The translations under genes and the position numbers were made by a program. Positions 3,524 through 18,529 of a DNA stretch of 64,000 nucleotides are shown piece after piece. The notes under the pieces are model-generated. The model did not search any database, was not told the DNA's origin, and saw nothing but the letters and a program-made list of their open reading frames with translations. The DNA comes from an uncultured Clostridia bacterium (GTDB lineage Bacteria > Bacillota > Clostridia > Oscillospirales > CAG-382). Where the stretch lies: the NCBI GenBank assembly GCA_947626805.1, contig CANQTR010000001.1, positions 11,579-75,578 on the forward strand, given 5' to 3'. Position 1 is the first letter of the stretch, and each line of letters begins with the position of its first letter.

Positions 3524-4382
3524 GTTCGTCCCCATATAACAGCATATATGCGTCCTCAAGCGTCGGTTGCACTTCCACCGCCGTTTCCGACGGCTTGACG
3601 GGGGAAAGCAGGCGGCAACTCGTTTTTCCGCCTTCGCTGTTGATTGCAATCACGCGGAAACGCGCTTTCAACTCCCCGAGCGCGTCGCCGTCGACGGTGC
3701 AGGACCAAACCGCGCCCCGCGCCTTTTCCGCCAGCGCGTTCGGTTCCCCGCAAAAAATCGTTTCGCCTTTCTTCAGGCAAATCACCCCGTTCGCGATGTG
3801 CTCGATATCGCCGATGATGTGCGTCGCGAGCAGAATCGTCTTGCCGAAGGACTGTTCCGCGAGGAAGTTTTTCACCAGAACCCGTTGCTTCGGGTCCAGC
3901 CCCGCCGTCGGTTCGTCGAGAAGCACGATTTCCGGCTCGCCCAAAAACGCCTGAATCAGCATCAGCCGCTGTTTCATGCCGCCCGAAAACGAAGCGATTT
4001 TCCGGTTTTTCACGGCGTCGAGCTCGAACCTGCCGAGAAGGGAATCGATTTGCGCCGACGCCGCTTTCCGGTCTATCCCCTTCAAAACCGCCATATAGTG
4101 CAGGAAATCCAGGCAGGAAAACGCGGGAATCAGTTCGCAAGATTGCGGCATATAGCCGATACGGGCGCGGAAACGACCGTTTTCCCGCTTTATTTTTTCT
4201 CCGTTGAAGAGAATCTCGCCGCCGTCCTGCCGAATGTTATCGGTCAGAATGTTCATGAACGTCGTTTTGCCCGACCCGTTCGGACCGAGCAACCCGTAAA
4301 CGCCCTCGCCCAGCCGGCAACTGCAATCGCAAAGCGCCCGTATTTTGCCATACGATTTACGGATTCCTTTTATTTCCAGCAT
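3504..4382 (-). CDS. ABC transporter ATP-binding protein
   Basis: Walker A GPNGSGKTT, signature FSGGMKQRL, Walker B IVLLDEPTAGLD, H-loop LLATH. Start moved from GTG 4388 to ATG 4382, which sits behind a GGGGG SD. Confidence 0.9.
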   Translation of the reverse strand: MLEIKGIRKSYGKIRALCDCSCRLGEGVYGLLGPNGSGKTTFMNILTDNIRQDGGEILFNGEKIKRENGRFRARIGYMPQSCELIPAFSCLDFLHYMAVLKGIDRKAASAQIDSLLGRFELDAVKNRKIASFSGGMKQRLMLIQAFLGEPEIVLLDEPTAGLDPKQRVLVKNFLAEQSFGKTILLATHIIGDIEHIANGVICLKKGETIFCGEPNALAEKARGAVWSCTVDGDALGELKARFRVIAINSEGGKTSCRLLSPVKPSETAVEVQPTLEDAYMLLYGDEHEADRV

Positions 4383-4496
4383 ACGCACCGCCCCCGTTCC
4401 GCCGCATCTATCGTTTTTTTATCGTTTCCCCGTATCGGCGCGTCCTTCGCCGCCGAAAACGGCGTGCTCACGCGCGAATTTGCGTGATTTCGGCGG

Positions 4497-4886
4497 TCAA
4501 CTGCATTTCGGAATCATATAACGGATAGGACGCGTCGCCTTGAAAACCGGTGTCTCCAAAGGAATCGGATTCTCGCGTTCGTCCATTCTCCGAATGGGGC
4601 GGGTACGAATCCATACGAAAATCAGGACGGCGACGGGAAATACCGCACAATATGCCAATTTGGGGGATAGCATACTCAAAAGGATCAAGCCGAGAATGAC
4701 AAGCACCAGACCTACCGCGAGCCGATTGACGGAAAAGCCTTGCCCGTAAAATTGCCTGCAATGCGGACAGCGCCCGAAATCCGTGTATCTGCTTCCCACC
4801 GTCGTGCGGGGCGTTTTGACCCGGTCGACCTTCGGGTTTATTCTTTTACCGCACCACGGACACCTTTTTGTACGCATGATACGCAC
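4497..4886 (-). CDS. zinc-ribbon membrane protein, unknown function
   Basis: CPWCGKRINP ... CPHCRQ (two CxxC pairs) followed by two hydrophobic helices. No family recognised. Confidence 0.5.
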   Translation of the reverse strand: MRIMRTKRCPWCGKRINPKVDRVKTPRTTVGSRYTDFGRCPHCRQFYGQGFSVNRLAVGLVLVILGLILLSMLSPKLAYCAVFPVAVLIFVWIRTRPIRRMDERENPIPLETPVFKATRPIRYMIPKCS

Positions 4887-5176
4887 GCCCTTTCTTGATT
4901 CAAATTCGCACGAACGATTCCGATTCCGTATTTTTGAAAGCCGTCAAGACAACGTCGCCGACGGGCGACCGCGCACGCGCGGCGTATTGTCGTATTTACC
5001 ATATATGCAAACATTTTTTCGTTTTTCACGGTAAAACCGTATAAATTATAGCAAAAATCCGACCGTTTGTCAAGCGGAATCCGCGCCATGGGTCTTAAAA
5101 ACCGGTTTTTCAAAACGATTGCGATATGCAGGCGCATTTTTTTCGTCTGACGGGAACGAAAAAAGTCGCGAAACAC

Positions 5177-5205
5177 TTGCAAACGCCATCAAGAATCGGT
5201 ATAAT
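5177..5205 (+). promoter_or_regulatory. sigma-70/SigA-type promoter
   Basis: TTGCAA (5177-5182), a 17-nt spacer, then TATAAT (5200-5205), 52 nt upstream of the ATG at 5258, in an AT-rich intergenic region. Confidence 0.6.
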
Positions 5206-5257
5206 ATACAAAAAAGGGTTCTGATTTTCTTTGCCCACATCGTAGGAGGACGATTTT

Positions 5258-5827
5258 ATGTTGTTCGACAGAATCAAGAAAATAACGCTCGCCTCTCTCT
5301 GCACGCTTCTGGTATATTTGCCTTCCTATGTAATTTTAGGCGCAATCGCGTCGTCCGACCCCGTTGCGAAAACGGTTGTTTGGACCCTCCTTTCCATCGC
5401 TTTGCCGGCATTATTTTCGTATCTGCTCATTTATTTCTGTTATCTCCGAAAGCGCAACGGGGAATTGCGCTATTGGCAGGACTATCGCGAGGGCGTTTTG
5501 GATACGGAAAACGAGTGGAAGAATTTGCTGTCGAGGGAAAAAGGAATGGTTCTTCTCTTCTTCTCGATAAACTTCCTGCTTTGGATAATCGGAAGTATCG
5601 ATGTGCTCCTGTTTAAAAAGCAAACGTTCTCGACGGTTCTGAATATCCTTTATTCGCCGATGTCTATGCTTGGCGAAATCCTGCCGAATTGGGCATACGG
5701 CGTACTGGGCTATTTGTGCGGCGCCGTTATCACATCGTTTTGGTACTTGCTGGAGATGCTCGTGGTGCAAAAAAAGTGGAGGAAACAAATCGTTGCACAG
5801 GAGAGCAGCGAAGGGGAGAAAAAGTAA
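5258..5827 (+). CDS. integral membrane protein, unknown function
   Basis: 189 aa with four to five hydrophobic helices and a GGAGGA SD. Same AT-richer composition as the downstream operon. Confidence 0.7.
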   Translation: MLFDRIKKITLASLCTLLVYLPSYVILGAIASSDPVAKTVVWTLLSIALPALFSYLLIYFCYLRKRNGELRYWQDYREGVLDTENEWKNLLSREKGMVLLFFSINFLLWIIGSIDVLLFKKQTFSTVLNILYSPMSMLGEILPNWAYGVLGYLCGAVITSFWYLLEMLVVQKKWRKQIVAQESSEGEKK

Positions 5828-5957
5828 GGCGTCCGCCGACATTGAACAAACGAACCGGTTTCTATGGATACGGCGGAAACCGAATTTCGACGTCGGAGGC
5901 ATATCGAAAGTCGCCGAAATTGCCGAAAAACATTGTAATTGAGCGGAGAATCGTACG

Positions 5958-8900
5958 ATGGCAGAGGATTTGCTGGACAGAAAACTCGAATATTGGGAAC
6001 ATCAATTGCTCGACCTTGGCAAGCGCAACAAAATGATTCATTACCGCGAAACCAAAAGGACTACCCTAAAGTTAGTAGAGCCTTCTTTTGGCAATCTCTT
6101 TACGCGACTGGCGATAAACGAAGAAACGCTGACCTTTCAGCGTGCGGTTGACAGAGAAACGGACATTCGGGTATTTTCCATTTTGTCGCTGCTGGAAACC
6201 TTATCCGCCCCGCTGCCGGTTACAATCGGCGATATCAAAACAGAAGGAAGTATCTTAGAACGTCAGCGCACATTGAAAAATATGCGCGCAAAATCCCGCC
6301 TTGCGCTCGAAGAACAAGGAACGAACATCCTCTACCTTTCTTTTGGATTTATCGAATGGAAAGACGGCAAGGGCGCTTCCGCGCAATGGATTAAATCCCC
6401 CATCATATTGGTGCCGGTCGTATTGACTTTAGAAGCAATCAATTCGCCGTATACGCTATCCAAGCACGAAGACGATATTGTTGTCAACCCCACATTGGAG
6501 TATTATCTCAAAACGGAGTACGGGATTGCATTACCGCATTTTGACGCGGACAAGGATACGCTTGACGAGTATCTGAAAAGCCTTGAAGATATCGCTGACC
6601 GGAGGGGCTGGAAAATTCTACGGGAAGCAAGTTTGGGGCTGCTTTCATTCCTCAAGATTACGATGTATAATGACCTTCTCCGCAATGAGGAGCGCATAAA
6701 GGAAAATCCCGTCATTCGGGCAATGTCCGGCGATACCGATGCGGTGAACGATATCCCCGACGAATTGCATTCATTCGACCTCGATTCAATAAAACCGCAA
6801 GACTGCTATCAAGTGCTGAGCGCCGATTCCAGCCAGCAAGACGCGATTCTTTACGCGAAGAATAACATCAGTTTCGTCATGCAAGGTCCTCCCGGAACCG
6901 GTAAGAGTCAGACGATTACCAACATCATCGCGGAAGCCTTAGCCGATGGAAAAAAAGTATTGTTCGTATCGGAAAAAATGGCTGCTTTGCAGGTGGTATA
7001 TCGAAGGCTGCAGGACGCACACCTTGCCGATTTCTGCCTGCCGCTCCACAGCTATAAGGCAAACAAGAAGGAAATCCTCGAACAAATTGGCGCCAATCTC
7101 AAGTTGAAGCAAACGCGCGTAAAAGATACCGCTATCACCAATCTGGAAGAGCTTTTAGCGATTCGTCAAGAGCTGAATCAATACGCTTCCGAACTCCACG
7201 CATTGAATCCCGAATTGAACCGTAGCTGTTATGAGGTTTACGGCAAACTTGAGGAAGTCAATCATGCGCCTACGGTTACATTCGCCATAGATGACCCCCT
7301 GGGGGTTTCACAGGCTACGTTGCAATCCGATTTGAACGCATTAAACGAATACGCATTGTCCCTGAGCAGATTAAAATATTTCATCAAGAATAATCCGTGG
7401 GAGGGTCTGTCCTCTCGTATATCGAGCTATGCATACTCGGAAAAAATGCGTTTGGAATTAGGCGCGTTTCATGAAATTCTGTCTCGGCTTATCGCGGAAA
7501 TCCAATCCGTTTCGGAATGTTCGCATCTGCCGAGCGCGCTTCCGTATACGGCAATCCCGCTATTGGCAGACGGGTTGCAAAAAATCGGTGCGCTCCCGTC
7601 CGTACCGAATGCGTGGCTTTACGACGTCGACATTTCGCAAGCGATATCCGTAGCCGAGGAGGCAAAAACGCTGTACGAAAAACAGTTTGCGCGGCAAAAG
7701 GAGATTGCGTCCGTCTTTAACAAAGATATCTACGGATATGACTGCAACGGCTGGAAAGAAACGCTCCGGGCAATCGCGAACGCCCTTGCCGACATGCCCT
7801 TGCTTGACAAGGATTCTCCGGACGATTATATCCGAGAGGCGCCGTTACTCGCAAAGGTTTTTTCCGCGCTCAAAGAAAAGCTTGTTACCGTCAATGAAAA
7901 ATTTGCGGCAATCAATGATTTGCTAGGGACGGATTTTCAAGCGAATGTCGCTACGCAACAAGTCGTCGCGGATTTGCTCGCCTTGCTCCAAAGCAACGCA
8001 ATTCCGCAAAAGAATTGGTTTTCCGCCGATTTAAGCGCAATCAAGGGATTGGTCGACGAGGCGAAGACCACGGCAGACGAGCTAAGGACCTGCAAAGAGC
8101 GCATATTGACCGAATGGGAATCGGACGTTTTGGCTTTGGACTATTCGCCGATGCTGTTGCGCTATAAAACGGATTACACACATCTGTCTAGGGTCTTTCA
8201 TTCCCAATACAGGCGGGATAAAAAGCAAATACAGGCATTGTCGAGAACCGTCCGCAAAAAACTGCCCGACGCTGTGGCGTTGGACCTGTTAAACGCATTA
8301 AAGAGATACCACGAAAAGCTGGCGTGGTTCGAGGAAAAGCGTGTTGCGCTATCCACTGCCCTTTCCTCGTATTATATCGGCGTCGATTCGCAATGGGATT
8401 TTATACGGGACGCGGTCGGCGTCGTCGAGCAGCTTTCCCGGCTCCTGGGAGGCCGCATTCCCCCGCGGACGATTGACCTGTTGTGCGCCGACCACCGCGC
8501 GCAAATCGAAACTTTGGAAACTCTGCTGTCAACCGCTAGAACGGCTTTTTCCGCGGCGAAAGAGATTCTGGAAAACCGACAACTCTCCATTCGTATCGAT
8601 TCCCCTGATTTTGATTCGAATCAAACGGTGGCTACAATCGACGCGTACCTGTCAAAACTAAACGAAATTGCCGTGCAGAAAGACCTGCTCAAGCCGTATC
8701 TGTATAACGCGGACGAGCCGATGGACTCCATAAATTCGGCAATGGAAACGCTGCATTTGTACACGGATACGAAGGATTTGCTTTTCGCCCGCTCCGCAAC
8801 GTATCAGCAGCAGTTTGGCTTTTTGTATTCGGATTCCATCACCGATTGGGATTACATTCTCGAACTGCTTGCGAAGGTATCGGAAATCAAACAATTGTCA

Positions 8901-11498
8901 TTATACGAAGAACTACGCCCCGCTATCAACGTGACGGCTGACCGAAAGCAACAGCTGCAGGCGCTTTCCGCGCGGTTGCTGGACGGTTTGAAAGCCGGAC
9001 AAGCCTCGTACGGTTGGATAAAAGACCAGTTCCATGCCGCAACGCATTTCGACGCCTTAAATCTTATCGCCCTTTCCGAAAAAATCGAAGGCTGCTCCGC
9101 TCACATCGACGCCCTCGGCAATTGGATTGACTATCAAGAAGCCAAAGCGACTTGCGACAAAAACGGGCTTTCCGATTTCATCGGCAAAATCGAAGCATCC
9201 GAACTTTATGCGGATATCGACAAAATCTTCTTAAAGGGCTTCTATCAGATGTGGCTCGGCGCCGTATGCGAGAAGTCTGCCTCGGTGCGCCGTTTTCGGA
9301 AAAACGCGCACGAGGAACGCGTCAAAAAGTTCATAGAGCTTGACGATTTGCAACTTTTGATTGCACAAATGCGTATTCGCGAAAAAATGATTGCGAATCT
9401 GCCTTCAACGCACCGATTGCTGAAAGCGACCGATGAAGTTGCAATTCTGAACAAGGAACTGAGCAAAAAACGCAATATCATGCCTTTGCGCAAACTTTTT
9501 CGGATGATTCCCAACCTGCTTATGCGACTGAAACCGTGCCTCATGATGTCCCCGCTCTCCGTGTCCTATTTTTTGGAAACGGAAGCATACCACTTTGATT
9601 TGGTGATTTTCGACGAGGCTTCCCAGATTTTCCCGGAGGACGCCATAGGAGCTATTTTCCGCGGGTCGCAGGTTATCATTGCCGGCGACAGCAAGCAACT
9701 GCCGCCCACCAATTTCTTTTCCGCAACAACAAACAATTCCGACGGGGATTACGATTTGGATGAGGACCAACCGCTTGTCGAAATCGTTTCCGATTCTATT
9801 TTGGAGGAATCGGCGGCGGTATTGCCGAACCGTACCCTGCTGTGGCATTACCGGAGCAAAGACGAAAGCCTTATTGCGTTTTCCAATCGGGAAATTTATA
9901 AAAACAGCCTGATTACCTTTCCAAATCACATTCATAACGCTCCGGACATGGGCGTTGAGTACATCTATGTGGAAAACGGCTATTATGAAGGCGGCGGAAG
10001 GAACTGCAACATACGGGAAGCGGAAAAATGCGTCCTGCTGGTACTGGAACACATCCGACGGCATCCCGACCGTTCCCTTGGCATCATCGCTTTCAGTGAA
10101 AAACAGCAAATCGCCATTGAGAGCGCAATCATCGATTTCAGAGAAAGGATGCCGCAATACGAATGGTTCTTTGATGAATCCAAGGAGGAGCCTTTCTTCG
10201 TCAAAAATCTTGAAAATGTTCAAGGCGACGAACGCGATACCATCCTCTTTAGTATTTGTTACGCCAAAGACCGAAACGGGAAAATGTATATGCGGTTCGG
10301 ACCGCTTGGGCATGAGGGCGGCGAGCGCCGCTTAAATGTAGCCATCACCAGGGCAAAGTGCAATATAAAATTGGTGGGTTCTATCCTCCCTTCCGAAATT
10401 GACCTCAGCAAAACGAATTCCGAAGGCGTTCGTATGCTTCGCGCTTATATCGAATTTGCACGAAACGGCACTAACGCATTCAAGCCGGTAGAAAAAGGCG
10501 AGGCTTTCGAATCGGACGACGAATTCTGCAACATGGTAGCCGCTTTCCTGGAAAGCAACGGATATACGATTCGGAAACGGGTGGGGTGTTCGGATTACAG
10601 AATTGATATCGCAATCGAAAATCCGAAGGCGAACGGAGAATTTATCGCGGGCATCGAATGTGACGGTATGTCCTATATGCACGCGAAAACCGCCCGCGAC
10701 CGAGACCACCTGAGAAGAACCGTGCTTGAGAACATGGGCTGGAATCTGTATCGTGTGTGGTCTACCGAATGGTCTCGCAATCCAAAGGCGGAGAAAGAGG
10801 CGTTGCTCCGATTTGTGCGAACCGCCCTTGAAAAAAACGACGCGGTTCCCTACGCCGTCAAGCAAAGCAATGCGGAGGAGCAGAGCATTGCAATGGAAGA
10901 TATCGCAAGCGAAACAGCAATGCCTCATCCAAAAACGCAAACGCAAAATCCGTATGGGTTTGCATATTACACCGCGGCAAAATGGTGGGAAACGCAATAC
11001 TCCGACGCGCGCGATAATTTGACGCGAATCGGCGATGTCATACTGCATATTGTCCGTACGGAGCAACCCATGCATATGGAGCTCTTATACCGACGAATGG
11101 GTCCGTCATTTACAGCCGGCAAAGCTACCGAAAGCGTCAGAAATGCCGTGGACGAAGCTATCGCAAAGAAATTGAAGGGGCGAGTGGGAATTGACGCCGA
11201 CCGGTTCATTCGGCTGCTTCCTCACGAACCGATTACGGTGCGCATTCCGAAACCCTACGACACACCGCGCCCGATGGAATTGATACATACGGAGGAAGTC
11301 GCCTTGGCAATGATTCAAATCATACGCAACGCGTTCGGTATTACGGAGGAAGATTTGGCGTCCGAATGCGCTCGCGTATTTGGGTTTGATCGAAAAGGGC
11401 CGAAAATCAAAGCCAAAACCGACGCCGCCATTCAATTTTTGGCAGATACCGGAAAAATAAAAATCATCGACGGCAAGGTGCAGTTGACAGGAGAATGA
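5958..11498 (+). CDS. DUF4011-type Upf1-like SF1 helicase fused to a Vsr/DUF559-like PD-(D/E)xK nuclease fold and a DUF3320-like tail (1846 aa)
   Basis: DUF4011-like N-terminus (LEYWEHQLLDLGKRNKMIHY). Walker A GPPGTGKSQT (6885-6914) and Walker B VIFDEASQI (9603-9629). Motifs V/VI VQGDERDTILFS and RRLNVAITRAK. Nuclease-like block YRIDIAIE...GIECDG...RDRDHLRRTVLENMGWNLYRVWSTEW (about 10590-10770). Confidence 0.92.
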   Translation: MAEDLLDRKLEYWEHQLLDLGKRNKMIHYRETKRTTLKLVEPSFGNLFTRLAINEETLTFQRAVDRETDIRVFSILSLLETLSAPLPVTIGDIKTEGSILERQRTLKNMRAKSRLALEEQGTNILYLSFGFIEWKDGKGASAQWIKSPIILVPVVLTLEAINSPYTLSKHEDDIVVNPTLEYYLKTEYGIALPHFDADKDTLDEYLKSLEDIADRRGWKILREASLGLLSFLKITMYNDLLRNEERIKENPVIRAMSGDTDAVNDIPDELHSFDLDSIKPQDCYQVLSADSSQQDAILYAKNNISFVMQGPPGTGKSQTITNIIAEALADGKKVLFVSEKMAALQVVYRRLQDAHLADFCLPLHSYKANKKEILEQIGANLKLKQTRVKDTAITNLEELLAIRQELNQYASELHALNPELNRSCYEVYGKLEEVNHAPTVTFAIDDPLGVSQATLQSDLNALNEYALSLSRLKYFIKNNPWEGLSSRISSYAYSEKMRLELGAFHEILSRLIAEIQSVSECSHLPSALPYTAIPLLADGLQKIGALPSVPNAWLYDVDISQAISVAEEAKTLYEKQFARQKEIASVFNKDIYGYDCNGWKETLRAIANALADMPLLDKDSPDDYIREAPLLAKVFSALKEKLVTVNEKFAAINDLLGTDFQANVATQQVVADLLALLQSNAIPQKNWFSADLSAIKGLVDEAKTTADELRTCKERILTEWESDVLALDYSPMLLRYKTDYTHLSRVFHSQYRRDKKQIQALSRTVRKKLPDAVALDLLNALKRYHEKLAWFEEKRVALSTALSSYYIGVDSQWDFIRDAVGVVEQLSRLLGGRIPPRTIDLLCADHRAQIETLETLLSTARTAFSAAKEILENRQLSIRIDSPDFDSNQTVATIDAYLSKLNEIAVQKDLLKPYLYNADEPMDSINSAMETLHLYTDTKDLLFARSATYQQQFGFLYSDSITDWDYILELLAKVSEIKQLSLYEELRPAINVTADRKQQLQALSARLLDGLKAGQASYGWIKDQFHAATHFDALNLIALSEKIEGCSAHIDALGNWIDYQEAKATCDKNGLSDFIGKIEASELYADIDKIFLKGFYQMWLGAVCEKSASVRRFRKNAHEERVKKFIELDDLQLLIAQMRIREKMIANLPSTHRLLKATDEVAILNKELSKKRNIMPLRKLFRMIPNLLMRLKPCLMMSPLSVSYFLETEAYHFDLVIFDEASQIFPEDAIGAIFRGSQVIIAGDSKQLPPTNFFSATTNNSDGDYDLDEDQPLVEIVSDSILEESAAVLPNRTLLWHYRSKDESLIAFSNREIYKNSLITFPNHIHNAPDMGVEYIYVENGYYEGGGRNCNIREAEKCVLLVLEHIRRHPDRSLGIIAFSEKQQIAIESAIIDFRERMPQYEWFFDESKEEPFFVKNLENVQGDERDTILFSICYAKDRNGKMYMRFGPLGHEGGERRLNVAITRAKCNIKLVGSILPSEIDLSKTNSEGVRMLRAYIEFARNGTNAFKPVEKGEAFESDDEFCNMVAAFLESNGYTIRKRVGCSDYRIDIAIENPKANGEFIAGIECDGMSYMHAKTARDRDHLRRTVLENMGWNLYRVWSTEWSRNPKAEKEALLRFVRTALEKNDAVPYAVKQSNAEEQSIAMEDIASETAMPHPKTQTQNPYGFAYYTAAKWWETQYSDARDNLTRIGDVILHIVRTEQPMHMELLYRRMGPSFTAGKATESVRNAVDEAIAKKLKGRVGIDADRFIRLLPHEPITVRIPKPYDTPRPMELIHTEEVALAMIQIIRNAFGITEEDLASECARVFGFDRKGPKIKAKTDAAIQFLADTGKIKIIDGKVQLTGE

Positions 11499-13183
11499 GG
11501 ATGAGCAATCAAACGGAAATCAACCCCGAAATCAACGCAACCGTGCGCAACGCGGAAGTCGGACAAGCGACAGTCGTCAATCCGGATATTCTAACGGCGC
11601 CGTCCAAAATTCCGGCGGGCACTATACTTGCCGGAAAATACGAAATCGCGGAACCCCTGTGCGCTTCAACCGGAGAAGCCGACCTCTACCGTTGCAAATG
11701 CGACGGCAAGGAATATGTTGCAAAGGTGTATCGGCGGCGACGCGCCGTTAAGCCCGAAGTCATAACGGTTCTGAAATCCATAGATTCGCCGTACGTCGCA
11801 AAACTATTTGACACAGGGGTCTATAACGACCGCCCCTTTGAGGTGCTCCCGTATTACAAAAACGGCAGTTTGCAAGGCAAACGGTTTTCTTTGGCGGAAT
11901 TGAAGGAAACCATAATCCCGTGTATCAACGAAGCGCTTAAGGTCTTACATCAAAACGATATTATCCATAAAGACTTAAAGCCGTCGAATATTATGCTTTT
12001 GGATGACAACAAAACTGTTGCCATCATCGATTTCGGAATCAGTTCGGTTGTAGAAGCCGGGAATACCGTATTGGTCACGAAAACAGGCATGACGCCCGAA
12101 TACTCCGCTCCGGAAACCTTCAGGAATCTGTTTTTGGAGGAATCCGACTACTACTCTTTCGGCATCACCTTGTTTGAATTGTATTGCGGATATACGCCGT
12201 ATGCAAACATGGACGCGGAACAAATCGCACGATTCACCGCCGTTCAGCGGATTCCCTTCCCCGAAAGTATGCCGCAAGAATTGCGGGATTTGATTTCCGC
12301 CGTTACCTATTTCGACATTACCAACCGCAATAAAAAGAGCAATCCCAATAGGCGCTGGACCTATGAAGAGGTATTGGGCTGGTGCAACGGCAAAAAGCAG
12401 GTCATTCCGGGCGAGGGCGTTGGACTTGCGGCGGAAAAGGCTATCCCGCCATACACCTTTTTGGGGAAGGAATACAAAGAGATTCCCGCCCTGATTGCCG
12501 CTCTTGCGGAACATTGGAATGACGGAAAGAAACAGCTTTATCGAGGCTTATTGTCCGGATTTTTCAAAAATTTCAATCCCGAAATCGCAAAATTTTGTTT
12601 GGACGCGGAAGAGGAAGCGACGCGAACGGCGGGCAAAGATGATGTCATCTTTTGGAACCTTCTCTATAGGATTTATCCGGAATTAAGCGGTTTCTATTGG
12701 ATGGGGCAGATTTACGAATCCCTCCCCGCATTGGGACGCGATATGCTCGAACGGCTTTGGAGCAACGATACATCCAACCATTCTTATTGGGACAGCATCC
12801 TGACGAACAAGTTGCTTACGCGTTATCTTGCAATCGTCAAATCCCAAAATGACGCGCTGGTGTCCGCGTCCTCGGCGCTGGAAACGGCGCATACGGTCGT
12901 CGGCAGAAGCAACCGCGATACCATGATGAACTACTATACAATGGCATATTTGCTTTCCGGGCAGAAACTCTTTGCGATTGGCAAAAAACGATTGCAGAAC
13001 GTATCGGAGCTGACCGCGCATATGAAAGGACTGCTTGCTTCTTCTTATGAGGAATTTGAGGACTTTTGCCATGAATTGATTGATTATGATGATACGCTGG
13101 ACGTCCAGTTTGAAGCGTGGTTGATAGCGCTCGGCAAAAGAACGGAATTGGACGCTTGGCGGCAGGGGTTGCAGGACACCTGA
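11495..13183 (+). CDS. Hanks-type Ser/Thr protein kinase with unassigned 260-aa C-terminal domain
   Basis: ATP-anchoring Lys in YVAKVY, catalytic loop HKDLKPSNIML (from 11966), DFG (IIDFGIS), APE (YSAPE). The ATG overlaps the helicase stop (ATGA); a second in-frame ATG is at 11501. Confidence 0.9.
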   Translation: MRMSNQTEINPEINATVRNAEVGQATVVNPDILTAPSKIPAGTILAGKYEIAEPLCASTGEADLYRCKCDGKEYVAKVYRRRRAVKPEVITVLKSIDSPYVAKLFDTGVYNDRPFEVLPYYKNGSLQGKRFSLAELKETIIPCINEALKVLHQNDIIHKDLKPSNIMLLDDNKTVAIIDFGISSVVEAGNTVLVTKTGMTPEYSAPETFRNLFLEESDYYSFGITLFELYCGYTPYANMDAEQIARFTAVQRIPFPESMPQELRDLISAVTYFDITNRNKKSNPNRRWTYEEVLGWCNGKKQVIPGEGVGLAAEKAIPPYTFLGKEYKEIPALIAALAEHWNDGKKQLYRGLLSGFFKNFNPEIAKFCLDAEEEATRTAGKDDVIFWNLLYRIYPELSGFYWMGQIYESLPALGRDMLERLWSNDTSNHSYWDSILTNKLLTRYLAIVKSQNDALVSASSALETAHTVVGRSNRDTMMNYYTMAYLLSGQKLFAIGKKRLQNVSELTAHMKGLLASSYEEFEDFCHELIDYDDTLDVQFEAWLIALGKRTELDAWRQGLQDT

Positions 13184-13198
13184 GCGGTCGTCGCATAG

Positions 13199-13217
13199 AA
13201 AAGGGGCACCCTTTTTT
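13199..13217 (+). terminator. weak hairpin plus T-run (possible attenuator or partial terminator inside the operon)
   Basis: AAAAGGG-GCA-CCCTTTTTT, 16 nt after the kinase stop. The stem is only 7 bp, so the call is weak. Confidence 0.35.
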
Positions 13218-13312
13218 GACGGCAAAGATTCGACACGAACGAATCTGCCATTACGCATATCAAAAAGGAACGGTTCTGCCGATTCCAGGATTTTCGGAGA
13301 GGAGGACGCCGA

Positions 13313-14605
13313 ATGAGCGGACCCAAAACATCAAAATATACGTTAACGCCGGAGCAACGGCGGATTTTGGCGGAGCAAAGAAAACTTGCGCACAGAAAAT
13401 CCATAGCTTCCGAAACCATCCAAAGGAATCGCAAAAGATTGCTGCAAATCGGCAGTATATTTTCTGCCGCAAAGACCGTTTCGGACGCGCTCGTGAGCCG
13501 TACCGGTTCCGATAACGGCTTTGCGGAGCGGATGCCGGAATTGGAGGGTATCCTTGCGTCCGTCGCCTCCGTCGTCGCGGGCGTAAATGCCGAGGACGTC
13601 GTTTCCCTCGAAAATGCGTCAAAAACGATTTCGGAAAGTCTCGCAAAAGCCGAAAAGATTGCTTCGGAATTGTCCCAAATTTCCGCCCGCAACGAAGTGG
13701 AACTGCAAGCCGTACTGCATGCCGATATCGATAAAGGATTCGACACTTCTTTTGCCGATATTGCCCCCGCGGCAGCGCCTACCGTAACGGAAAGACGAAA
13801 AACGCTCCTCGCGCAACTCATTCGGATGAAAAATAACAAAACCCTGCCCGCCGAATGGATAACCGAACTCGAAAAAGCAATCGGCAAAATAAACGATATC
13901 CGGGATGAAACGTTTTTGAAAAATTTTTCTTCCGTAACGGTCGCTCCGTTGCTCAAACGTTGCCAAATCTTCTTGGATGAATGCGAAGCCTGCCACGAAG
14001 AATTCGAAAAATTATATGCGGAATATATTGCCCTCTGCAATCTTTACTGCTATGTCGCGCAAGAGTATCCCTGTTGCGCCGCCTCTATCGAGGCTCTCAA
14101 AGCGGAAATCCGGCGTATAAGCGCCGTTGCGGCTGAAAATGACGAGCAAGCGTATATCAGCGAATGTTTGGACGAGGTCATGGAAGAAATGGGCTATACC
14201 GTGATTGGCAGTCGCGAAGTCACCAAAAAGAACGGAAAGCATTTTCGCAATGAACTTTATACCTATGGGGATGGGACCGCGGTCAATGTGACGTATTCTT
14301 CCGACGGGAGAATCGCAATGGAGCTTGGCGGAATCGATTCCGTCGACAGACTGCCGGAGGCGCGCGAAACAGCCGCTTTGTGCGCGTCCATGGAACAGTT
14401 TTGCGATGATTTCAAGGAAATCGAAAAGCGACTGCTCGCCAAAGGCGTCGTGCTTGCCCACCGGGTTTCTCTGCTGCCTCCGAGCGCGGAATACGCCCAA
14501 ATTATCAACACAACGGAGTATCGAATGACCGAAGAAACGGATACGTCGCAAGCGAAGAAAAAACGTAGGACCGCAAAAAATCGAAAAGCGATGGGGATAG
14601 AGTAA
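13313..14605 (+). CDS. hypothetical protein (430 aa), helical N-half, Cys-containing alpha/beta C-half
   Basis: GGAGAGGAGGA SD. No catalytic motif recognised. N-terminus MSGPKTSKYTLTPEQRR carries Thr-Pro/Ser sites. The stop lies 3 nt before the FHA gene. Confidence 0.8.
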   Translation: MSGPKTSKYTLTPEQRRILAEQRKLAHRKSIASETIQRNRKRLLQIGSIFSAAKTVSDALVSRTGSDNGFAERMPELEGILASVASVVAGVNAEDVVSLENASKTISESLAKAEKIASELSQISARNEVELQAVLHADIDKGFDTSFADIAPAAAPTVTERRKTLLAQLIRMKNNKTLPAEWITELEKAIGKINDIRDETFLKNFSSVTVAPLLKRCQIFLDECEACHEEFEKLYAEYIALCNLYCYVAQEYPCCAASIEALKAEIRRISAVAAENDEQAYISECLDEVMEEMGYTVIGSREVTKKNGKHFRNELYTYGDGTAVNVTYSSDGRIAMELGGIDSVDRLPEARETAALCASMEQFCDDFKEIEKRLLAKGVVLAHRVSLLPPSAEYAQIINTTEYRMTEETDTSQAKKKRRTAKNRKAMGIE

Positions 14606-14608
14606 CCA

Positions 14609-15223
14609 ATGGAAAAGTATAAACTTTGCCCTTCCTGCAAGAAAAAGAATCCGCCGACTTTATTTGAGTGCATAAACTGTGAAACCGACCTTACCGGCGT
14701 TAAAATTACCGATGAAGAGGCGGAAAAAATGCTTGCGGAAACCGCCGTTTCGCAAGCGGAATCGCCTAAGAACATGGTTAGGGTTTGCGAATGCGGCGCA
14801 AAGAACGCCCCCAATGCGCGAAAATGCCGTTCGTGTAACGAGGACATCTCGGACATTCCCCCGACCGTCGATACGGAAGAAGGAACCGAAACCACGACCT
14901 TTGTGTTAAGCAGTCTTGACGGTCGGTACGCTTTCAAGGTCACGACAGACGAGGTAACGCTCGGACGAGAGAGCGCAATGCGCGAATACCTCTCGGCAAA
15001 AAGCTATGTGAGCAGATTGCACGCAAGCGTTACAAAGGTGCACGACGAATGGTTTATCGAAAATTTGAGCAATACCAATTTCACCTATGTCAATAATAAA
15101 AGAATCACAGAGAAAACCAAACTGCAAGACGGAGATGAAATCGGACTCGGGGGAACATCGCTTAACGGCAAGCGCCAGGAACAGGCGGCATATTTCTTGG
15201 TGAGGATTGGAAAATGTATGTAG
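14609..15223 (+). CDS. double zinc-ribbon + FHA domain protein
   Basis: CPSCKK...CINCETD and CECGAK...CRSCNED ribbons, then the FHA core VTLGRES...SRLHASV...IENLSNTNFTYVNNKRI...DGDEIGLG. Confidence 0.85.
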   Translation: MEKYKLCPSCKKKNPPTLFECINCETDLTGVKITDEEAEKMLAETAVSQAESPKNMVRVCECGAKNAPNARKCRSCNEDISDIPPTVDTEEGTETTTFVLSSLDGRYAFKVTTDEVTLGRESAMREYLSAKSYVSRLHASVTKVHDEWFIENLSNTNFTYVNNKRITEKTKLQDGDEIGLGGTSLNGKRQEQAAYFLVRIGKCM

Positions 15224-15762
15224 CGAGAATTCTGTATCCCGTCGAGGTTCTCGGACCCGGAAAGCGTGTGGGTATTTGGTTTTGCGGTTGTCCCCGCAGG
15301 TGCAAGGGATGCAGCAATCCCGAGCTTTGGGAATTTAACGAGCGCTACAAAACGACCCCCGAAACGGTTTTTGCATTGATAAAAAGGCTTGCCGAAGAAC
15401 ACCCGATAGACGGCTTTACAATCACCGGCGGCGAACCGATGTTTCAGACGGCGGATTTACGGAAATTGCTTGGATTATTAAAAGAAATCTCGGATGATAT
15501 ACTTGTTTATACGGGATACAAGAAGAGCGACCTTGACCCTGCATTGCTTGCCGACGTGAGCGTCCTGATTGACGGAGAATATCTGGAAGAACGGAATGAC
15601 GATTCGCTGCTCAGAGGTTCTTCCAATCAGGAAGTGCATCTATTAGACGCGAAAAAGGCGGATACCTATAGGACCTACTTTGCGACGGAAACCAACAAGA
15701 TTCAAAACTTCTTCACCTCGGACGGCGTTGTTTCCGTCGGAATACACAGACCGAACTTTTGA
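15214..15762 (+). CDS. NrdG-like radical-SAM activating enzyme (182 aa), orphan
   Basis: VLGPGKRVGIWFCGCPRRCKGCSNPELW contains CxxxCxxC (C26/C30/C33, nt 15289-15312). Also TGGEPMFQ, ILVYTGY and a VLIDGEY...LLRGSSNQ tail, as in class III RNR activases. Overlaps the FHA gene by 10 nt. Confidence 0.85.
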   Translation: MYVARILYPVEVLGPGKRVGIWFCGCPRRCKGCSNPELWEFNERYKTTPETVFALIKRLAEEHPIDGFTITGGEPMFQTADLRKLLGLLKEISDDILVYTGYKKSDLDPALLADVSVLIDGEYLEERNDDSLLRGSSNQEVHLLDAKKADTYRTYFATETNKIQNFFTSDGVVSVGIHRPNF

Positions 15763-15775
15763 GAGGAGAAAGGAA

Positions 15776-17656
15776 ATGGCCGATTACATCCCGAAATGGC
15801 ATAAAGAGCTTGGCATTTTCTCGAAAATCAAGCCGCTGATTATTTTGGAAGGGAATGTTTTGGACTCGTATCAGTATCCCGTAGAAGGAAGCACCCCGAA
15901 GGGCAGCATTTTGCGCTTGCCCGAATATCTGCACTTTTACTTCAAGGACATGGGATACCAAACCATCGTTTTCTATGATAGCCTGAGAGGTTTCTATAAC
16001 ACTTGCGAGGAAGGCTATCTTGAACGTTTCGCAAAACTCGCCGAAAGTTCCGCAAGCCACGGTTTTATCAAAGCCGATTTCAAAGGCGGCAATAAGAATG
16101 ACGGCGCGGTCAACATTGTTCGTAAAACCCTTTCGCAAAACCGGGAGGCAACCGTTATTGTCATGGATTTTGCGTCTAGGTATATTCCTTCTCCCGACAA
16201 CTTAGACCAAAACGAGGTCGACAGCTTTACCGTACTCCTGCAGGCGTCCCTCGACGCGAAAGATGTAAAGACGGAAAGCAACGGGATTCTGAAAAACCTT
16301 CTCCTATTGATTGCGAATAAAGCAAACGACATCCCCGCCTGGTTCTATTTGCAAAATCCCAATGTAAAGATGATTACGCTTTCCGCTCCGTCCAAAGAAG
16401 AGCGGGAAGCGTTGGTGAAAAGTCAAAACTTCCCCAGTTTCTTTGCGGGCGAAGTCTATGCGGAAGATAGCGTTTATTATGACGCGCACCCGGACGAACT
16501 TACGAAAATCCAGGATAAATTCGTTGCGCTTACCGAAGGGTTCAGCTTTACCGAAATCAACGGCTTGCGAAGACTCTGCAAAAACGAAAGAATCCGTATG
16601 CGGGATTTCTGTGATGTAATTGACTTATATAAGTACGGGATTCGGGAAAATCCATGGAAAAGCCTTGATTTTGAGAAGATTCGAAATGCCAAAGCGGACT
16701 TTGAAAATCGGGTGAAAGGGCAGGACCAAGCGATAACGAAAACGCTTGACGTTGTCAAACGCGCAATCACCGGAATGTCCGGGCTGCAAGGTTCGTCCCA
16801 TACAAGACCAAAAGGGGTTTTATTCTTTGCCGGACCTACGGGCACCGGGAAAACCGAAACGGCCAAAACGCTCGCGGAAATTCTCTTCGGCGATGAAAGC
16901 TGCTGCAAAAGATTTGATATGAGTGAGTATGGGCAAAGCCACAGTGACCAAAAATTGCTCGGAGCGCCTCCCGGATATGTGGGGTATGAGGCCGGTGGAC
17001 AGCTGACCAATGCCGTCAAAAACAACCCGTTCTCGATTTTGCTGTTTGACGAAATCGAAAAAGCGCACCCGTCTATTTTGGACAAGTTCCTGCAAATTCT
17101 CGAGGACGGTCGAATGACCGACGGGCAAGGAAATACCGTCTACTTTTCCGAAACAATCATCATATTCACAAGCAATCTCGGAATTTACACGATGAACGAA
17201 AACGGACAGCGGGAAGCAAACGTCACAAGCGATATGCCATATCGGGAAATATCCGCGCGCGTTCGAGAAGCCATTGAAGCGTATTTCAAATTGCAGCTCG
17301 GTCGCCCCGAAATCCTCAACAGAATCGGAGAGAATATCGTGGTGTTCGACTATATTCGCCCCGAAGTAGCAAAACAGATTCTCAATGCGCAAGTGCAGAA
17401 AATCCTTGCGAATCTGTCTGCCGAAAAACGGATTACGTTAACCATTGCAGACGACGCTATGGCAACTTTAACGGAACACGCTTTAAACAATCTCCAAAAC
17501 GGCGGGCGCGGAATCGGAAATGTCGTCGAGAACCTCTTAATTAATCCGTTGTCGCGATACCTATTTGACAGGGAGATATTCGGTACCGCAAGCATAACGA
17601 TTAATCGCATTGATACCACTGCAACGCCGCCGTCATTGAACTGCACGAAGGGTTGA
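15776..17656 (+). CDS. ClpA/ClpB-D2-like AAA+ ATPase with degenerate N-terminal half
   Basis: ORF 15680.. trimmed to ATG 15776 (GAGAGGAGAAAGG SD). Walker A GPTGTGKT (16832-16855), GAPPGYVGY, Walker B ILLFDEIEKAHP, sensor-1 IIIFTSN, ILNRIGE, and a ClpB D2-small-like tail. The first 330 aa or so have no P-loop. Confidence 0.9.
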   Translation: MADYIPKWHKELGIFSKIKPLIILEGNVLDSYQYPVEGSTPKGSILRLPEYLHFYFKDMGYQTIVFYDSLRGFYNTCEEGYLERFAKLAESSASHGFIKADFKGGNKNDGAVNIVRKTLSQNREATVIVMDFASRYIPSPDNLDQNEVDSFTVLLQASLDAKDVKTESNGILKNLLLLIANKANDIPAWFYLQNPNVKMITLSAPSKEEREALVKSQNFPSFFAGEVYAEDSVYYDAHPDELTKIQDKFVALTEGFSFTEINGLRRLCKNERIRMRDFCDVIDLYKYGIRENPWKSLDFEKIRNAKADFENRVKGQDQAITKTLDVVKRAITGMSGLQGSSHTRPKGVLFFAGPTGTGKTETAKTLAEILFGDESCCKRFDMSEYGQSHSDQKLLGAPPGYVGYEAGGQLTNAVKNNPFSILLFDEIEKAHPSILDKFLQILEDGRMTDGQGNTVYFSETIIIFTSNLGIYTMNENGQREANVTSDMPYREISARVREAIEAYFKLQLGRPEILNRIGENIVVFDYIRPEVAKQILNAQVQKILANLSAEKRITLTIADDAMATLTEHALNNLQNGGRGIGNVVENLLINPLSRYLFDREIFGTASITINRIDTTATPPSLNCTKG

Positions 17657-17659
17657 GGT

Positions 17660-18382
17660 ATGAAGGTCATCGCCATAACGCAAAAAGGTCCAAACAAGTC
17701 GGAAAATGAAGATAGAATCGTCGTCGGGAAATCCGTCCTTGCAGACGGGACCCTCTGTTCCGAAATCAAGGAAGGCGTTATAGCGATTGCGGACGGCGTC
17801 GGCGGGCAAAACGCGGGCGCGTATGCGTCGCAATACGTCGCGGGCAGGCTTTGCACGATAAACGAAATATCCGACAAACGCATGCGGGATATAAACGAAG
17901 AACTGATACGAATTTCCGAGACCCGTGAAAACCTAAACGGAATGGCTACGACTTTATCCGGGGTGCGTATTTCCGAAAGCAAGACGCAATTGTTCGGTAT
18001 CGGTAACACCCGTGTATATCTTCTTCAAAGCGGAAAATACCTCAAACAGCTCACATCCGACGATACGACTTTGCAGTATTTGCTTGCCGCCGGCCAATTA
18101 GCGCCGGGCGACGCGGCGAGGTTTGACAGGAAAAACGAACTCGTCGCTTGTTTCGGAGGCAACTCTCCCGAGCTGTTCAAAATCAAGATACGCGATATGG
18201 AACCGTTTGCCGCGCCGATTGTCCTCAGTTCCGACGGCATACACGACTATTTGACCGTTGACCAAATGGAAGATATTATCGCGTCGTTCGGGCTCTCCGA
18301 AGCCGCGTGTAAGGAACTGATTCGGCTTGCGCGGGAAAACGGTTCATCCGACGACGCGAGTATCGTTTTCGGCGTGGTTTAG
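17660..18382 (+). CDS. PP2C-family Ser/Thr protein phosphatase
   Basis: NEDRIVV, IADGVGGQNAG, GMATTLSG, GNTRVYLL, LSSDGIHDYL, GSSDDASIV (PPM motifs). The start lies 3 nt after the ATPase stop. Confidence 0.9.
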   Translation: MKVIAITQKGPNKSENEDRIVVGKSVLADGTLCSEIKEGVIAIADGVGGQNAGAYASQYVAGRLCTINEISDKRMRDINEELIRISETRENLNGMATTLSGVRISESKTQLFGIGNTRVYLLQSGKYLKQLTSDDTTLQYLLAAGQLAPGDAARFDRKNELVACFGGNSPELFKIKIRDMEPFAAPIVLSSDGIHDYLTVDQMEDIIASFGLSEAACKELIRLARENGSSDDASIVFGVV

Positions 18383-18529
18383 GCCAGACTTCGGTTTTGG
18401 AAACGCGTGCCAATCCTCCGCGGCGCAATGCGCAACTTTTAAAAAACGGGCCTCCCCTTCCGTACGGGTCCGTCCGCATGCGTTTGACGCTTTTCACCCC
18501 GCAAAATACCCTTTCGGAGCCGAAACGGA

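Follow-up and report, generated by a model that had tools for sequence, protein, structure and literature searches.

A conserved set of partner genes beside a helicase-nuclease in Clostridia, a candidate mobile conflict system

We analyzed a stretch of 64,000 nucleotides (nt) from an uncultured Clostridia bacterium (GenBank assembly GCA_947626805.1, contig CANQTR010000001.1, positions 11,579 to 75,578 of the forward strand), which we refer to as the window. Between positions 5958 and 18382 it carries seven co-directional genes for a helicase-nuclease, a Hanks-type Ser/Thr kinase (STK), a 430-amino-acid (aa) protein that we call U430, a zinc-ribbon FHA protein, a NrdG-like radical S-adenosylmethionine (radical-SAM) enzyme (rSAM), a two-tier AAA+ ATPase and a PP2C-type phosphatase (Table 1). 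An initial annotation, made from the letters of the sequence, had proposed that these genes form a phospho-gated conflict system unlike any named defense system. We found that genes 2 to 7 recur in a fixed order in about 60 loci and that the ATPase and the rSAM accompany helicase-nucleases in other phyla as well. We lean, by a modest measure, toward reading the whole as a mobile conflict system.

Results

The seven-gene operon

The seven genes are closely packed and lie in a stretch of low GC content. Their coordinates in the list of open reading frames (ORFs) of the window agree with those of the initial annotation, as do the five junctions it quoted: an ATGA at 11495-11498, in which the start of gene 2 overlaps the stop of gene 1; a 10-nt overlap (15214-15223); 3-nt gaps at 14605/14609 and 17656/17660; and a 13-nt gap (15762/15776). 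The longest ORF for gene 6 has a TTG start at 15680; its homologs are 620-629 aa long, compared with 626 aa from the ATG. The GC content was 0.45-0.51 over positions 5001-18000, lower than on the left (0.54-0.61 at 1-5000) and on the right (0.51-0.57 at 18001-27000), in agreement with the description of the operon as richer in AT than its flanks. Pfam upheld every domain call that had been made.

In the space between genes 2 and 3 (slot A), a T-run comes after a weak hairpin (aaaaggggcaccctttttt), and gene 3 is preceded by a strong GGAGG ribosome-binding site. There was no convincing terminator inside the operon, and the first strong terminators on the plus strand are at 20967-21060. Because the counts in our promoter and terminator scan were at chance level overall, we used the scan only for the absence of a strong intra-operon terminator.

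Table 1. Coordinates of the operon and of other features in the window and in related loci (L numbers).
Feature	Sequence	Position	Strand	Length	Remark
Gene 1, helicase-nuclease	window	5958-11498	+	1846 aa	
Gene 2, Hanks-type Ser/Thr kinase (STK)	window	11495-13183	+	562 aa	
Gene 3, U430	window	13313-14605	+	430 aa	
Gene 4, zinc-ribbon FHA protein	window	14609-15223	+	204 aa	
Gene 5, NrdG-like radical-SAM enzyme (rSAM)	window	15214-15762	+	182 aa	
Gene 6, two-tier AAA+ ATPase	window	15776-17656	+	626 aa	from ATG
Gene 7, PP2C-type Ser/Thr phosphatase	window	17660-18382	+	240 aa	
Slot A, intergenic between genes 2 and 3	window	13184-13312	+	129 nt	
DEAD/Helicase_C protein, DpdF/PsyrT type	window	18530-20809	+	759 aa	PADLOC DpdF 352 bits, PsyrT 267 bits
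ClpP protease	window	21207-21809	+		downstream of operon
249-aa protein	window	21806-22555	+	249 aa	downstream of operon
Short TraG/VirD4-type coupling protein	window	22545-23855	+		downstream of operon
vWA/SpaA-type tip pilin	window	42478-45999	+	1173 aa	ordinary Firmicute chromosomal gene
Cache-HAMP-SpoIIE-HATPase sensor phosphatase	window	46608-49064	+	818 aa	ordinary Firmicute chromosomal gene
Tn916-type Int/Xis, with sigma and HTH_16 genes	L001	18449-21037			towards system
Tn916-type Int/Xis	L014, L025, L071, L079				at downstream ends

Conservation in Clostridia

The order of genes 2 to 7 was invariant across Clostridial loci. We retrieved loci through U430 from GTDB genomes and metagenomes and by exact-protein look-ups, and called genes present or absent by simple ATG-start ORF calling and BLAST clustering. 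The order STK-U430-FHA-rSAM-AAA-PP2C was the same in the approximately 60 informative loci, down to 35% identity in U430. Among the 39 loci with enough flank, the rSAM was found in all 39, the FHA protein in 38, the STK in 36, and the ATPase and the PP2C phosphatase in 34 each. The hosts are gut and rumen Clostridia (Lachnospiraceae, Acetatifactor, Ruminococcus, Oscillospiraceae, Acutalibacteraceae, Monoglobus) and Erysipelotrichaceae, plus one contig binned as Muribaculum and one as 'proteobacterium'. That the genes are a real conserved unit, as had been suggested, is therefore borne out by co-occurrence outside this genome, which was looked for and found.

The exact seven-gene form is present in two cultured anaerobes, Clostridium thermosuccinogenes (GCA_002896995.1, NIOI01000001.1, 306264-326812) and Aristaeella lactis WTE2008, where it is a plasmid copy on a 44-kb replicon (NZ_CP069422.1). 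RefSeq gives the genes of these loci generic names only; the Aristaeella ortholog of gene 1, for instance, is called just 'DUF4011 domain-containing protein'.

Accessory genes at fixed slots are hypervariable, including leucine-rich repeat (LRR), transmembrane coiled-coil, DUF4236, ion-channel and vWA genes. An LRR_5 protein can stand between the STK and U430 (slot A) or between the rSAM and the ATPase; slot A may instead hold transmembrane and coiled-coil proteins (families f8, f9, f12 and f19). The phosphatase can be followed by a DUF4236 protein, or two of them, and in some loci by an ion channel as well.

Loci can do without the helicase, yet it is a genuine partner that co-evolves with the core. 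It was present in 31 of the 46 loci whose upstream flank was long enough to judge, and its pairwise divergence followed that of the STK, U430 and the ATPase with Spearman coefficients of 0.85, 0.84 and 0.84, compared with 0.87 for the STK against the ATPase. The helicase had been described as wired to the other genes; a third of the Clostridial loci do without it.

The encoded proteins

Gene 1 encodes a relative of catalogued anti-phage helicase-nucleases. An N-terminal DUF4011 region (Pfam, 114 bits) is followed by an Upf1-like superfamily 1 (SF1) helicase (AAA_11, 63 bits; AAA_12, 54 bits) and a C-terminal MTES_1575/DUF559 (Vsr-like) nuclease (108 bits, and a weak 18 bits, respectively). The Walker A (GPPGTGKS, residue 310) and Walker B (IFDEASQ, 1217) motifs are parted by an insert of about 860 aa. 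These helicase motifs and the nuclease motifs (RIDIAI at 1548, GIECDG at 1565) are intact.

The defense models that we compared were those of PADLOC v2 (2023) and NCBIfam release 20. PADLOC PDC-S37 matched gene 1 in three stretches at 1370.6 bits, a match for which no PADLOC threshold is shown; PADLOC lists PDC-S37 as a single-gene candidate, and gene 1 alone matched the profile. The PADLOC model for Hhe (PDLC02194) gave 577.9 bits and that of NCBIfam (NF042953) 855.4 bits. Gene 1 has the architecture of Hhe (DUF4011, SF1 helicase and a Vsr/DUF559-type nuclease) but scores below its 2000-bit equivalog cut-off. The NCBIfam model 'anti-phage protein ProA' (NF058533) gave 1284.9 bits, below its whole-protein cut-off of 1500, with the best stretch pairing residues 845-1812 with model positions 918-1903. 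Since gene 1 falls below the cut-offs of both ProA and Hhe, it is a relative of those families and not an equivalog; judged by its profile matches, it belongs to the catalogued Hhe/PDC-S37/ProA helicase-nuclease anti-phage family. The initial annotation had not placed it in a known family, which these scores (1370, 1285 and 855 bits) correct. Hhe is a single-gene helicase-nuclease defense in experimental use (bioRxiv 10.1101/2024.10.10.617714); we found no publication describing ProA or PDC-S37 in the literature searched.

Genes 2, 4 and 7 encode a potential writer, reader and eraser of phosphothreonine. The kinase (Pkinase, 110 bits) has K77, HKD at 158-160, DFG at 179 and SAPE at 204, and these catalytic motifs are invariant among 43 family members. 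Its unassigned C-terminal domain of about 270 aa had no sequence match in the PDB. In PADLOC the kinase matched only generic kinase models, namely mad6, PD-T4-6 and, in its kinase part, MkoA. The FHA protein (FHA, 52.7 bits) has a weakly scoring double zinc ribbon (DZR), with CPSC at 7, CINC at 21, C-x-C at 60-62 and CRSC at 73, and its phosphothreonine-binding residues (GR at 119-120, S135, H138) are conserved in the family. The phosphatase (PP2C/PP2C_2) has ENED at 15, DGVGG at 45, SSDG at 190 and DDAS at 231, and matched the Stp1-type model of NCBIfam at 123 bits, below the cut-off of 230. The catalytic or binding motifs of the STK, FHA protein, rSAM, ATPase and PP2C phosphatase are all intact in the window and invariant across the family. 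The FHA protein and the phosphatase were seen solely in Clostridia-type loci and in one divergent metagenomic architecture. The writer, reader and eraser of the phospho-gating that had been proposed keep their motifs. As a cross-phylum core the gating does not stand, with FHA and PP2C confined in this way, the kinase fused to the helicase in Rhizobium and no kinase detected in Acinetobacter.

Gene 5 encodes an enzyme of the NrdG type that has no NrdD beside it. It matched Fer4_12 (102 bits) and Radical_SAM in Pfam, and its best NCBIfam match was NrdG (TIGR02491) at 98.2 bits, below the cut-off of 126.1. The window protein has C26-x3-C30-x2-C33, GCSNPELW, GGEP at 72 and LIDGEY...RGSSNQ at 134, and the corresponding signature (CX3CX2C, GC-x-N-x3-W, GGEP, LIDG-Y...RGS-NQ) is conserved across phyla. 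By comparison with E. coli NrdG, we take these motifs to be hallmarks of glycyl-radical activases of the NrdG/PFL type. Gene 5 thus has the cluster and the activase-type signature of NrdG, and lacks a score above the cut-off and an adjacent NrdD: no gene for NrdD or another glycyl-radical enzyme was found nearby in any of about 70 loci. It further differs from NrdG/PFL activases by a conserved C-terminal tail (VGIHRP) in the Clostridial clade and by its constant neighbor, the AAA+ ATPase.

Gene 6 is, by its predicted structure, a two-tier Hsp100-like ATPase with a degenerate pseudo-D1 (residues 1-300) and an active-type D2. The D2 (Pfam AAA_2, 169 bits, and ClpB_D2-small) is of the ClpB/ClpV type, with Walker A K359, Walker B D425-E426, a GYVGY pore loop at 400 and GRPEILNR at 509; its Walker A and B motifs, pore loop and arginine finger are invariant. 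The N-terminal 300 residues had no match by sequence. An AF2 (AlphaFold2) model of residues 1-310, with a predicted local distance difference test score (pLDDT) of 88, matched AAA+ folds in Foldseek (Rubisco activase, ORC, Trip13, Rpt subunits and NSF; E=4e-5 to 1e-3), and we rejected the idea of a novel substrate-binding domain in favor of a degenerate AAA+ module. This D1 has no P-loop; ILEGNVLD (residue 23) stands in its place. The earlier description of gene 6 as ClpA/B-D2-like was correct for the D2 and had missed the degenerate tier.

The pseudo-D1 occurs only fused to, or directly ahead of, an AAA_2 module. Full-length orthologs of gene 6 have 34-40% identity in Proteobacteria and a cyanobacterium. 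Gene 6 differs from ClpB and ClpA, which have two active tiers and an N-domain (and, in ClpB, an M-domain): it matched the ClpB model TIGR03346 in the D2 only, at 266 bits against a cut-off of 1232. No ClpP-docking IGF/IGL loop was seen by eye, and we infer from this a ClpB/ClpV-like remodeller with no protease partner. A partnership with ClpP is further disfavored by the ClpP gene at 21207, which is not conserved beside the system.

Related loci in other phyla

The ATPase and the rSAM accompany SF1 helicases in several other architectures. One of these, in loci L091-93, was found by a search with the N-terminal 300 residues of the ATPase, and the others by protein searches of plasmid collections. 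The L091-93 order is U430 homolog, FHA, rSAM, split AAA, vWA, vWA, 159-aa protein, PP2C, kinase and MkoA-like SF1 helicase (272 bits). The U430 homolog has 28% identity (E=5e-19; hhalign probability 99.5%), the rSAM 47%, and the two genes of the split ATPase 47% and 63%.

On plasmids of Rhizobium leguminosarum (pRLgr12_2) and Caballeronia sp. M1242, genes for the ATPase (39-40% identity along the whole protein) and the rSAM (36-39%) precede one for a protein of 2086 or 2101 aa, after which comes a 448-aa protein; in Rhizobium the first three ORFs overlap. The 2086/2101-aa protein joins a zinc ribbon to a kinase, DUF4011, a helicase and an MTES_1575 nuclease (PDC-S37, 462 bits). By its domain content it is a Rosetta-stone fusion that combines genes 2 and 1, and possibly also the zinc-ribbon part of gene 4, to which its N-terminal zinc ribbon is weakly similar.

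On plasmids of Acinetobacter (pNDM1_010055) and Photobacterium toruni, the ATPase (34-35%) and the rSAM (28-30%) come last in a row of five genes, after those for an MkoA-like helicase (320 bits), a PIN-domain protein and a 371-aa protein. These units have no FHA or PP2C gene, and a kinase domain was not detected in them. The rSAM gene was always beside the AAA gene in Rhizobium, Caballeronia, Acinetobacter and Photobacterium; in Geminocystis the two are 9 kb apart in a defense-type island. Based on sequence comparison, the constants across phyla are the AAA+ ATPase, the rSAM, an SF1 helicase-nuclease and a partner protein with an MSGPK-type N-terminus.

Several further clusters combine a radical-SAM enzyme with an ATPase or a helicase. 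Pseudomonas aeruginosa cDHS1 (PMC10250203) may be the same helicase-rSAM association in Pseudomonas. In Acinetobacter pNDM1_010055 (L102, 11721-13703), the 617-aa ATPase and 193-aa rSAM lie directly ahead of a further, small AAA protein (173 aa), a further radical-SAM protein (328 aa) and a hypothetical protein of 162 aa. A plasmid cluster that recurs in two phyla, in Bacillus cereus (L105, NZ_CP106676.1, 8983-12792) and Paenarthrobacter (L101, NZ_CP053545.1, 5935-9603), combines a NrdG-like rSAM with an AAA ATPase of about 550 aa; its other members are a small hypothetical protein, a helix-hairpin-helix protein and DUF2997. It may be another uncharacterised rSAM and AAA system. Calothrix PCC 6303 (L106, pCAL6303.02, 3418-14939) has an Hsp70-family protein, a 1316-aa TPR protein, an overlapping NrdG-like rSAM, a 494-aa protein and an 848-aa AAA ATPase. 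The ATPases of the B. cereus/Paenarthrobacter and Calothrix clusters were dissimilar to gene 6 by BLASTP, which does not support grouping these clusters with the present system.

U430 and the MSGPK N-terminus

U430 belongs to an unnamed family of 764 representative clusters at 50% identity (E<=1e-3). It had no match in Pfam, PADLOC, NCBIfam or the PDB, in keeping with its description as a protein with no recognisable motif. Its AF2 model (mean pLDDT 83.5) has an N-terminal beta-strand (MSGPKTS-Y-LT), a helical bundle (residues 13-292) and a conserved C-terminal alpha/beta domain (297-400), and conserved motifs are EVMEEMGY at 288 and MELGG at 336. We found no known structure for it: sequence and profile matches to the PDB did not go beyond coiled-coil noise, and Foldseek against the PDB and BFVD gave none below E=1e-3. 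A resemblance of the C-terminal domain to AdoMetDC (3c6k, E=0.019) was too weak to use.

The N-terminus is the part of U430 that is shared most widely. MSGPK was present in 127 of 133 diverse full-length representatives, exactly at the start in 122 and just inside a mis-called start in 5, and the consensus is MSGPK-[TSIV]-S-x-Y-x-L-[TS]-x-E-Q-R-R. None of the approximately 1,040 other ORFs of the fetched loci starts with MSGP[KR]. The 448-aa protein of Rhizobium and Caballeronia starts MSGPKVVR[VI]VTREE; a Geminocystis protein, upstream of genes for a HigB-like toxin, a regulator and the ATPase, starts MSGSPKYTSATL; and the 371-aa proteins of Acinetobacter and Photobacterium start MS..HER.YRL.RERE. 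With hhalign, the 371-aa and 448-aa proteins were not detected as remote homologs of U430 (7% for the 448-aa protein), so that the N-terminal motif alone is shared. The variable-slot proteins were likewise rejected as paralogs of U430 (hhalign probability <=1.3%).

That the short MSGPK element is kept in proteins that otherwise diverge suggests that the ATPase-rSAM pair docks on it or modifies it. Gly3 might accept a radical, the N-terminus might be a tag by which the ATPase threads the protein, and T12 might be phosphorylated. By inspection, neither U430 nor the ATPase has a glycyl-radical motif (RVxG[FYW]), and the invariant 'EEMGY' of U430 was not convincing as one.

Genomic setting

The system is found in mobile and partly defense-island-like surroundings. 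Besides low GC content and the plasmid copy in Aristaeella, this is seen in its neighbors: a gene for AbiE, PDC-S01, an IetA-like protein or an HTH protein often adjoins helicase-bearing loci, and in three lineages the 3' end of the system directly adjoins genes for a Tn916-type integrase and Xis that are transcribed toward it (Table 1). The AT-rich island may be a preferred insertion target. A phage-borne system was rejected, as the IMG/VR and INPHARED phage collections contained no U430. Two divergent versions of the system have other genes of a conflict type upstream: an 830-aa KAP NTPase (L085, 5852-8344) ahead of a minimal U430-FHA-rSAM-PP2C variant, and an nSTAND3/IstB-like ATPase with two ankyrin-repeat proteins (L091, 746-6340) ahead of the vWA-containing variant.

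In the window, the island boundaries have no tRNA and no convincing flanking direct repeats, and the HTH regulator that stands upstream of the helicase in L001 and L030 is absent. Two homologous ABC-transporter ATPase genes of the same BLAST cluster, at 3504-4388 and 24736-25632 (both on the minus strand), bracket the low-GC region, which is consistent with insertion between or next to duplicated transporter operons. The DpdF/PsyrT-like gene starts 147 nt past the PP2C stop. No terminator was found between 18382 and 18530, so this gene may be co-transcribed here; it is absent from all related loci and is outside the conserved system. The ClpP, 249-aa and TraG/VirD4-type genes (21207-23855) may be a remnant of a conjugative element, although no integrase, tRNA or flanking repeat was found near them. 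The tip pilin and sensor phosphatase genes farther downstream confirm the chromosomal setting.

Discussion

We think it somewhat more probable than otherwise that the operon is a mobile conflict system, in which a helicase-nuclease of the Hhe/ProA/Mokosh class works with a module of ATPase, rSAM and MSGPK protein under a kinase-FHA-PP2C switch in Clostridia. Its target would most likely be phages or plasmids. This reading builds on what we observed: gene order, conservation, co-evolution of the helicase, fusions across phyla, intact catalytic motifs and the pseudo-D1 AAA+ fold. From these we infer a defense role, and for the order of events, the trigger of the kinase and the substrates of the ATPase and the rSAM we propose the following scheme.

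Gene 1 would be the nucleic-acid sensor and effector. Gene 6 would be a hexameric threading ATPase of the ClpB/ClpV kind with a pseudo-D1 tier, gene 5 a NrdG-type rSAM translationally coupled to the ATPase or its neighbors, and gene 3 the coiled-coil MSGPK protein of this partner module. In Clostridia, gene 2 would write phosphothreonine, gene 4 would read it, and gene 7 would erase it and hold the system off; threonine phosphorylation would gate the system only in these hosts. A trigger, either foreign nucleic acid on the helicase or a signal at the C-terminal domain of the kinase, would activate the kinase. Phosphothreonine, perhaps at the conserved T12 of the MSGPK protein, would then recruit the FHA protein. 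The ATPase would remodel or thread the MSGPK protein while the rSAM modifies a protein partner or consumes SAM, and nuclease attack or growth arrest would thereby be licensed or reinforced.

Several findings weigh against a conflict system of this kind. Foldseek gave no structural relative of U430. U430, the FHA protein, the rSAM, the phosphatase and the variable-slot proteins match no anti-phage model of PADLOC v2 or NCBIfam. The loci are mostly derived through U430 and come from related gut and rumen metagenome-assembled genomes, so that the samples are not fully independent. The 15 helicase-less loci are mostly among housekeeping genes (PurL, SufBD, a PBP5-type carboxypeptidase, MCP), so that neither an obvious nucleic-acid effector nor a defense island is needed for the six-gene core to exist. 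The DUF4011 helicase was found on 493 plasmid records and the pseudo-D1 ATPase on only 12, and the AAA/rSAM partner was absent from four helicase contexts that we inspected (Ralstonia, P. aeruginosa, Halalkalicoccus and Bacteroides). DUF4011 helicases thus mostly stand alone and do not need these partners. Taken together, these counts point to a one-sided dependence, in which the ATPase-rSAM pair is almost always with an SF1 helicase-nuclease and the helicase is mostly autonomous.

In one alternative, the operon would be two independent neighbors, an autonomous defense gene of the Hhe/PDC-S37 type and a separate, non-cooperating module of genes 2 to 7 with a function of its own, in defense or elsewhere. 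PDC-S37 is listed as a single-gene candidate and Hhe works alone, stand-alone DUF4011 helicases are common on plasmids, 15 of 46 loci lack the helicase, and AbiE and PDC-S01 neighbors were found only beside helicase-bearing loci. We nonetheless regard two independent units as unlikely. The helicase and kinase genes overlap, and the divergence of the helicase tracks the core as tightly as the core genes track one another. A single polypeptide contains both the kinase and the DUF4011 helicase-nuclease in Rhizobium and Caballeronia, next to orthologs of genes 5 and 6, and in two further architectures a different SF1 helicase has been recruited beside the same AAA-rSAM pair. The occurrence of this pair with helicase-nucleases or PIN nucleases on plasmids of aerobic Proteobacteria that lack the STK/FHA/PP2C trio argues against a cellular role, in which genes 2 to 7 would serve anaerobic Firmicutes in signaling and protein remodeling, the helicase would be an optional client and the module would have no part in immunity. 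Such a pathway might be a stress or DNA-damage response, or phospho-regulated control of a radical enzyme. It would fit the helicase-less loci among housekeeping genes and the absence of the system from phage and viral collections. STK/FHA/PP2C trios are classical regulators of the cell envelope and division (the best NCBIfam matches here were FhaB/FipA and Stp1, below cut-off), and enzymes of the NrdG type normally activate metabolic glycyl-radical enzymes. However, no glycyl-radical enzyme is encoded nearby in any locus, the distribution is patchy with a GC content atypical for the host, one copy is plasmid-borne (Aristaeella), the accessory slots are hypervariable, and integrases and defense genes are adjacent in several lineages. 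We consider a cellular pathway quite unlikely.

The signs of mobility could also be taken to mean that the operon serves the mobile element itself, as a cassette for addiction, exclusion or anti-defense on integrative and conjugative elements or plasmids, for example by killing segregants or blocking competitors. Proximity speaks for this: the system is directly beside Tn916-type Int/Xis in three lineages and beside TnpV, a TraG/VirD4-like gene is downstream of it in the window, and there are plasmid copies in five genera. But the integrase of L001 points toward the operon, which, judging from this orientation, would be just outside that element; many loci have no mobile-element genes within 10 kb; and the conserved core contains no recognisable toxin-antitoxin-like pair. 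A cassette of this kind seems very improbable to us.

Within the conflict-system reading, a more specific and rather unlikely possibility is that the ATPase, rSAM and MSGPK protein form a protein-directed radical switch, a biochemical principle that would be new to immunity. The MSGPK N-terminus (Gly3 or a neighbor) would be offered by the unfoldase to the glycyl-radical-type activase, and the system would be armed or fired by the radical, or the backbone modification, produced in this way. The part of sensor or effector could then be taken interchangeably by helicase-nucleases, PIN nucleases, membrane proteins and LRR proteins, and threonine phosphorylation would be an optional safety catch.

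If the conflict-system reading is correct, helicase-nuclease defenses of the Hhe/Mokosh class gain a more elaborate version with several genes, and three sizeable orphan families gain a first functional context: U430, the pseudo-D1 ClpB-like ATPase and a branch of NrdG-type activases outside ribonucleotide reductase (RNR). To the extent of our searches, this would also be the first case of immunity in which an enzyme of the glycyl-radical-activase type is paired with an unfoldase. The one-sided dependence raises the question of whether the add-on provides regulation, a broader range or counter-counter-defense. Tractable material includes the plasmid versions of aerobic hosts (Acinetobacter NZ_CP032284.1, Rhizobium NZ_CP090092.1) and the cultured anaerobes C. 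thermosuccinogenes and A. lactis WTE2008.

Comparison with known systems

We found no description of this gene set in the literature searched, and it is not among the NTP-dependent conflict systems of Kaur et al. 2020 (eLife, PMC7159879). The statement that the set is outside the named defense systems holds for six of the genes, which match only generic kinase or AAA-core models, and does not hold for gene 1, with its Hhe/PDC-S37/ProA relatives. The operon is also distinct from MADS (mad1-mad8): the kinase matches mad6 (127 bits; NCBIfam MAD6 81 bits against 460) and, marginally, mad8, and the operon contains no methyltransferase. Dodola (DolA and the ClpB-like DolB) and PDC-M37 are a precedent for a ClpB-like AAA+ ATPase in defense. 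Gene 6 matches their models in the AAA core only (DolB, 80.6 bits over residues 289-468; PDC-M37B, 102-103 bits over 349-470), no counterpart of DolA or M37A was detected, and the pseudo-D1 tier and the rSAM partner are specific to the present family.

The threonine-phosphorylation pathway of type VI secretion consists of the PpkA kinase, the PppA PP2C phosphatase, Fha1 and the ClpV ATPase. Like the Clostridial operon, it joins a phosphothreonine writer, reader and eraser to a threading ATPase of the ClpB/ClpV type. However, the scores are far below cut-off (gene 6 against TssH/ClpV, 223 versus 884.95 bits; gene 4 against the type VI FHA model, 28 versus 120.25), gene 6 differs from ClpV in its degenerate D1 and in missing the N-domain of ClpV, and no type VI structural genes were found among the scanned ORFs of the window or in related loci.

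Mokosh type I, as reported by Millman et al. in 2022, is said to consist of a helicase with a kinase domain (MkoA) and a phospholipase D-like (PLD) nuclease (MkoB). An Upf1-like SF1 helicase is common to it and the present operon, as are a Ser/Thr kinase domain and a nuclease. The MkoA model (PDLC03920) is matched, at low scores, by gene 1 in its helicase part (90 bits) and by gene 2 in its kinase part (81 bits), and the helicases of the L092 and Acinetobacter variants are Mokosh-like (MkoA, 272-320 bits). The nuclease is different, being Vsr-like in the window and PIN in Acinetobacter, not PLD, with no MkoB or PLD match in the operon; and Mokosh is without the AAA+, radical-SAM, FHA, PP2C and MSGPK components.

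Hhe, PDC-S37 and ProA are single genes, whereas the helicase of the window is translationally coupled to six further conserved genes. Based on these comparisons, we conclude that what is likely new here is a conserved multi-gene partner set beside a helicase-nuclease of an already catalogued family.

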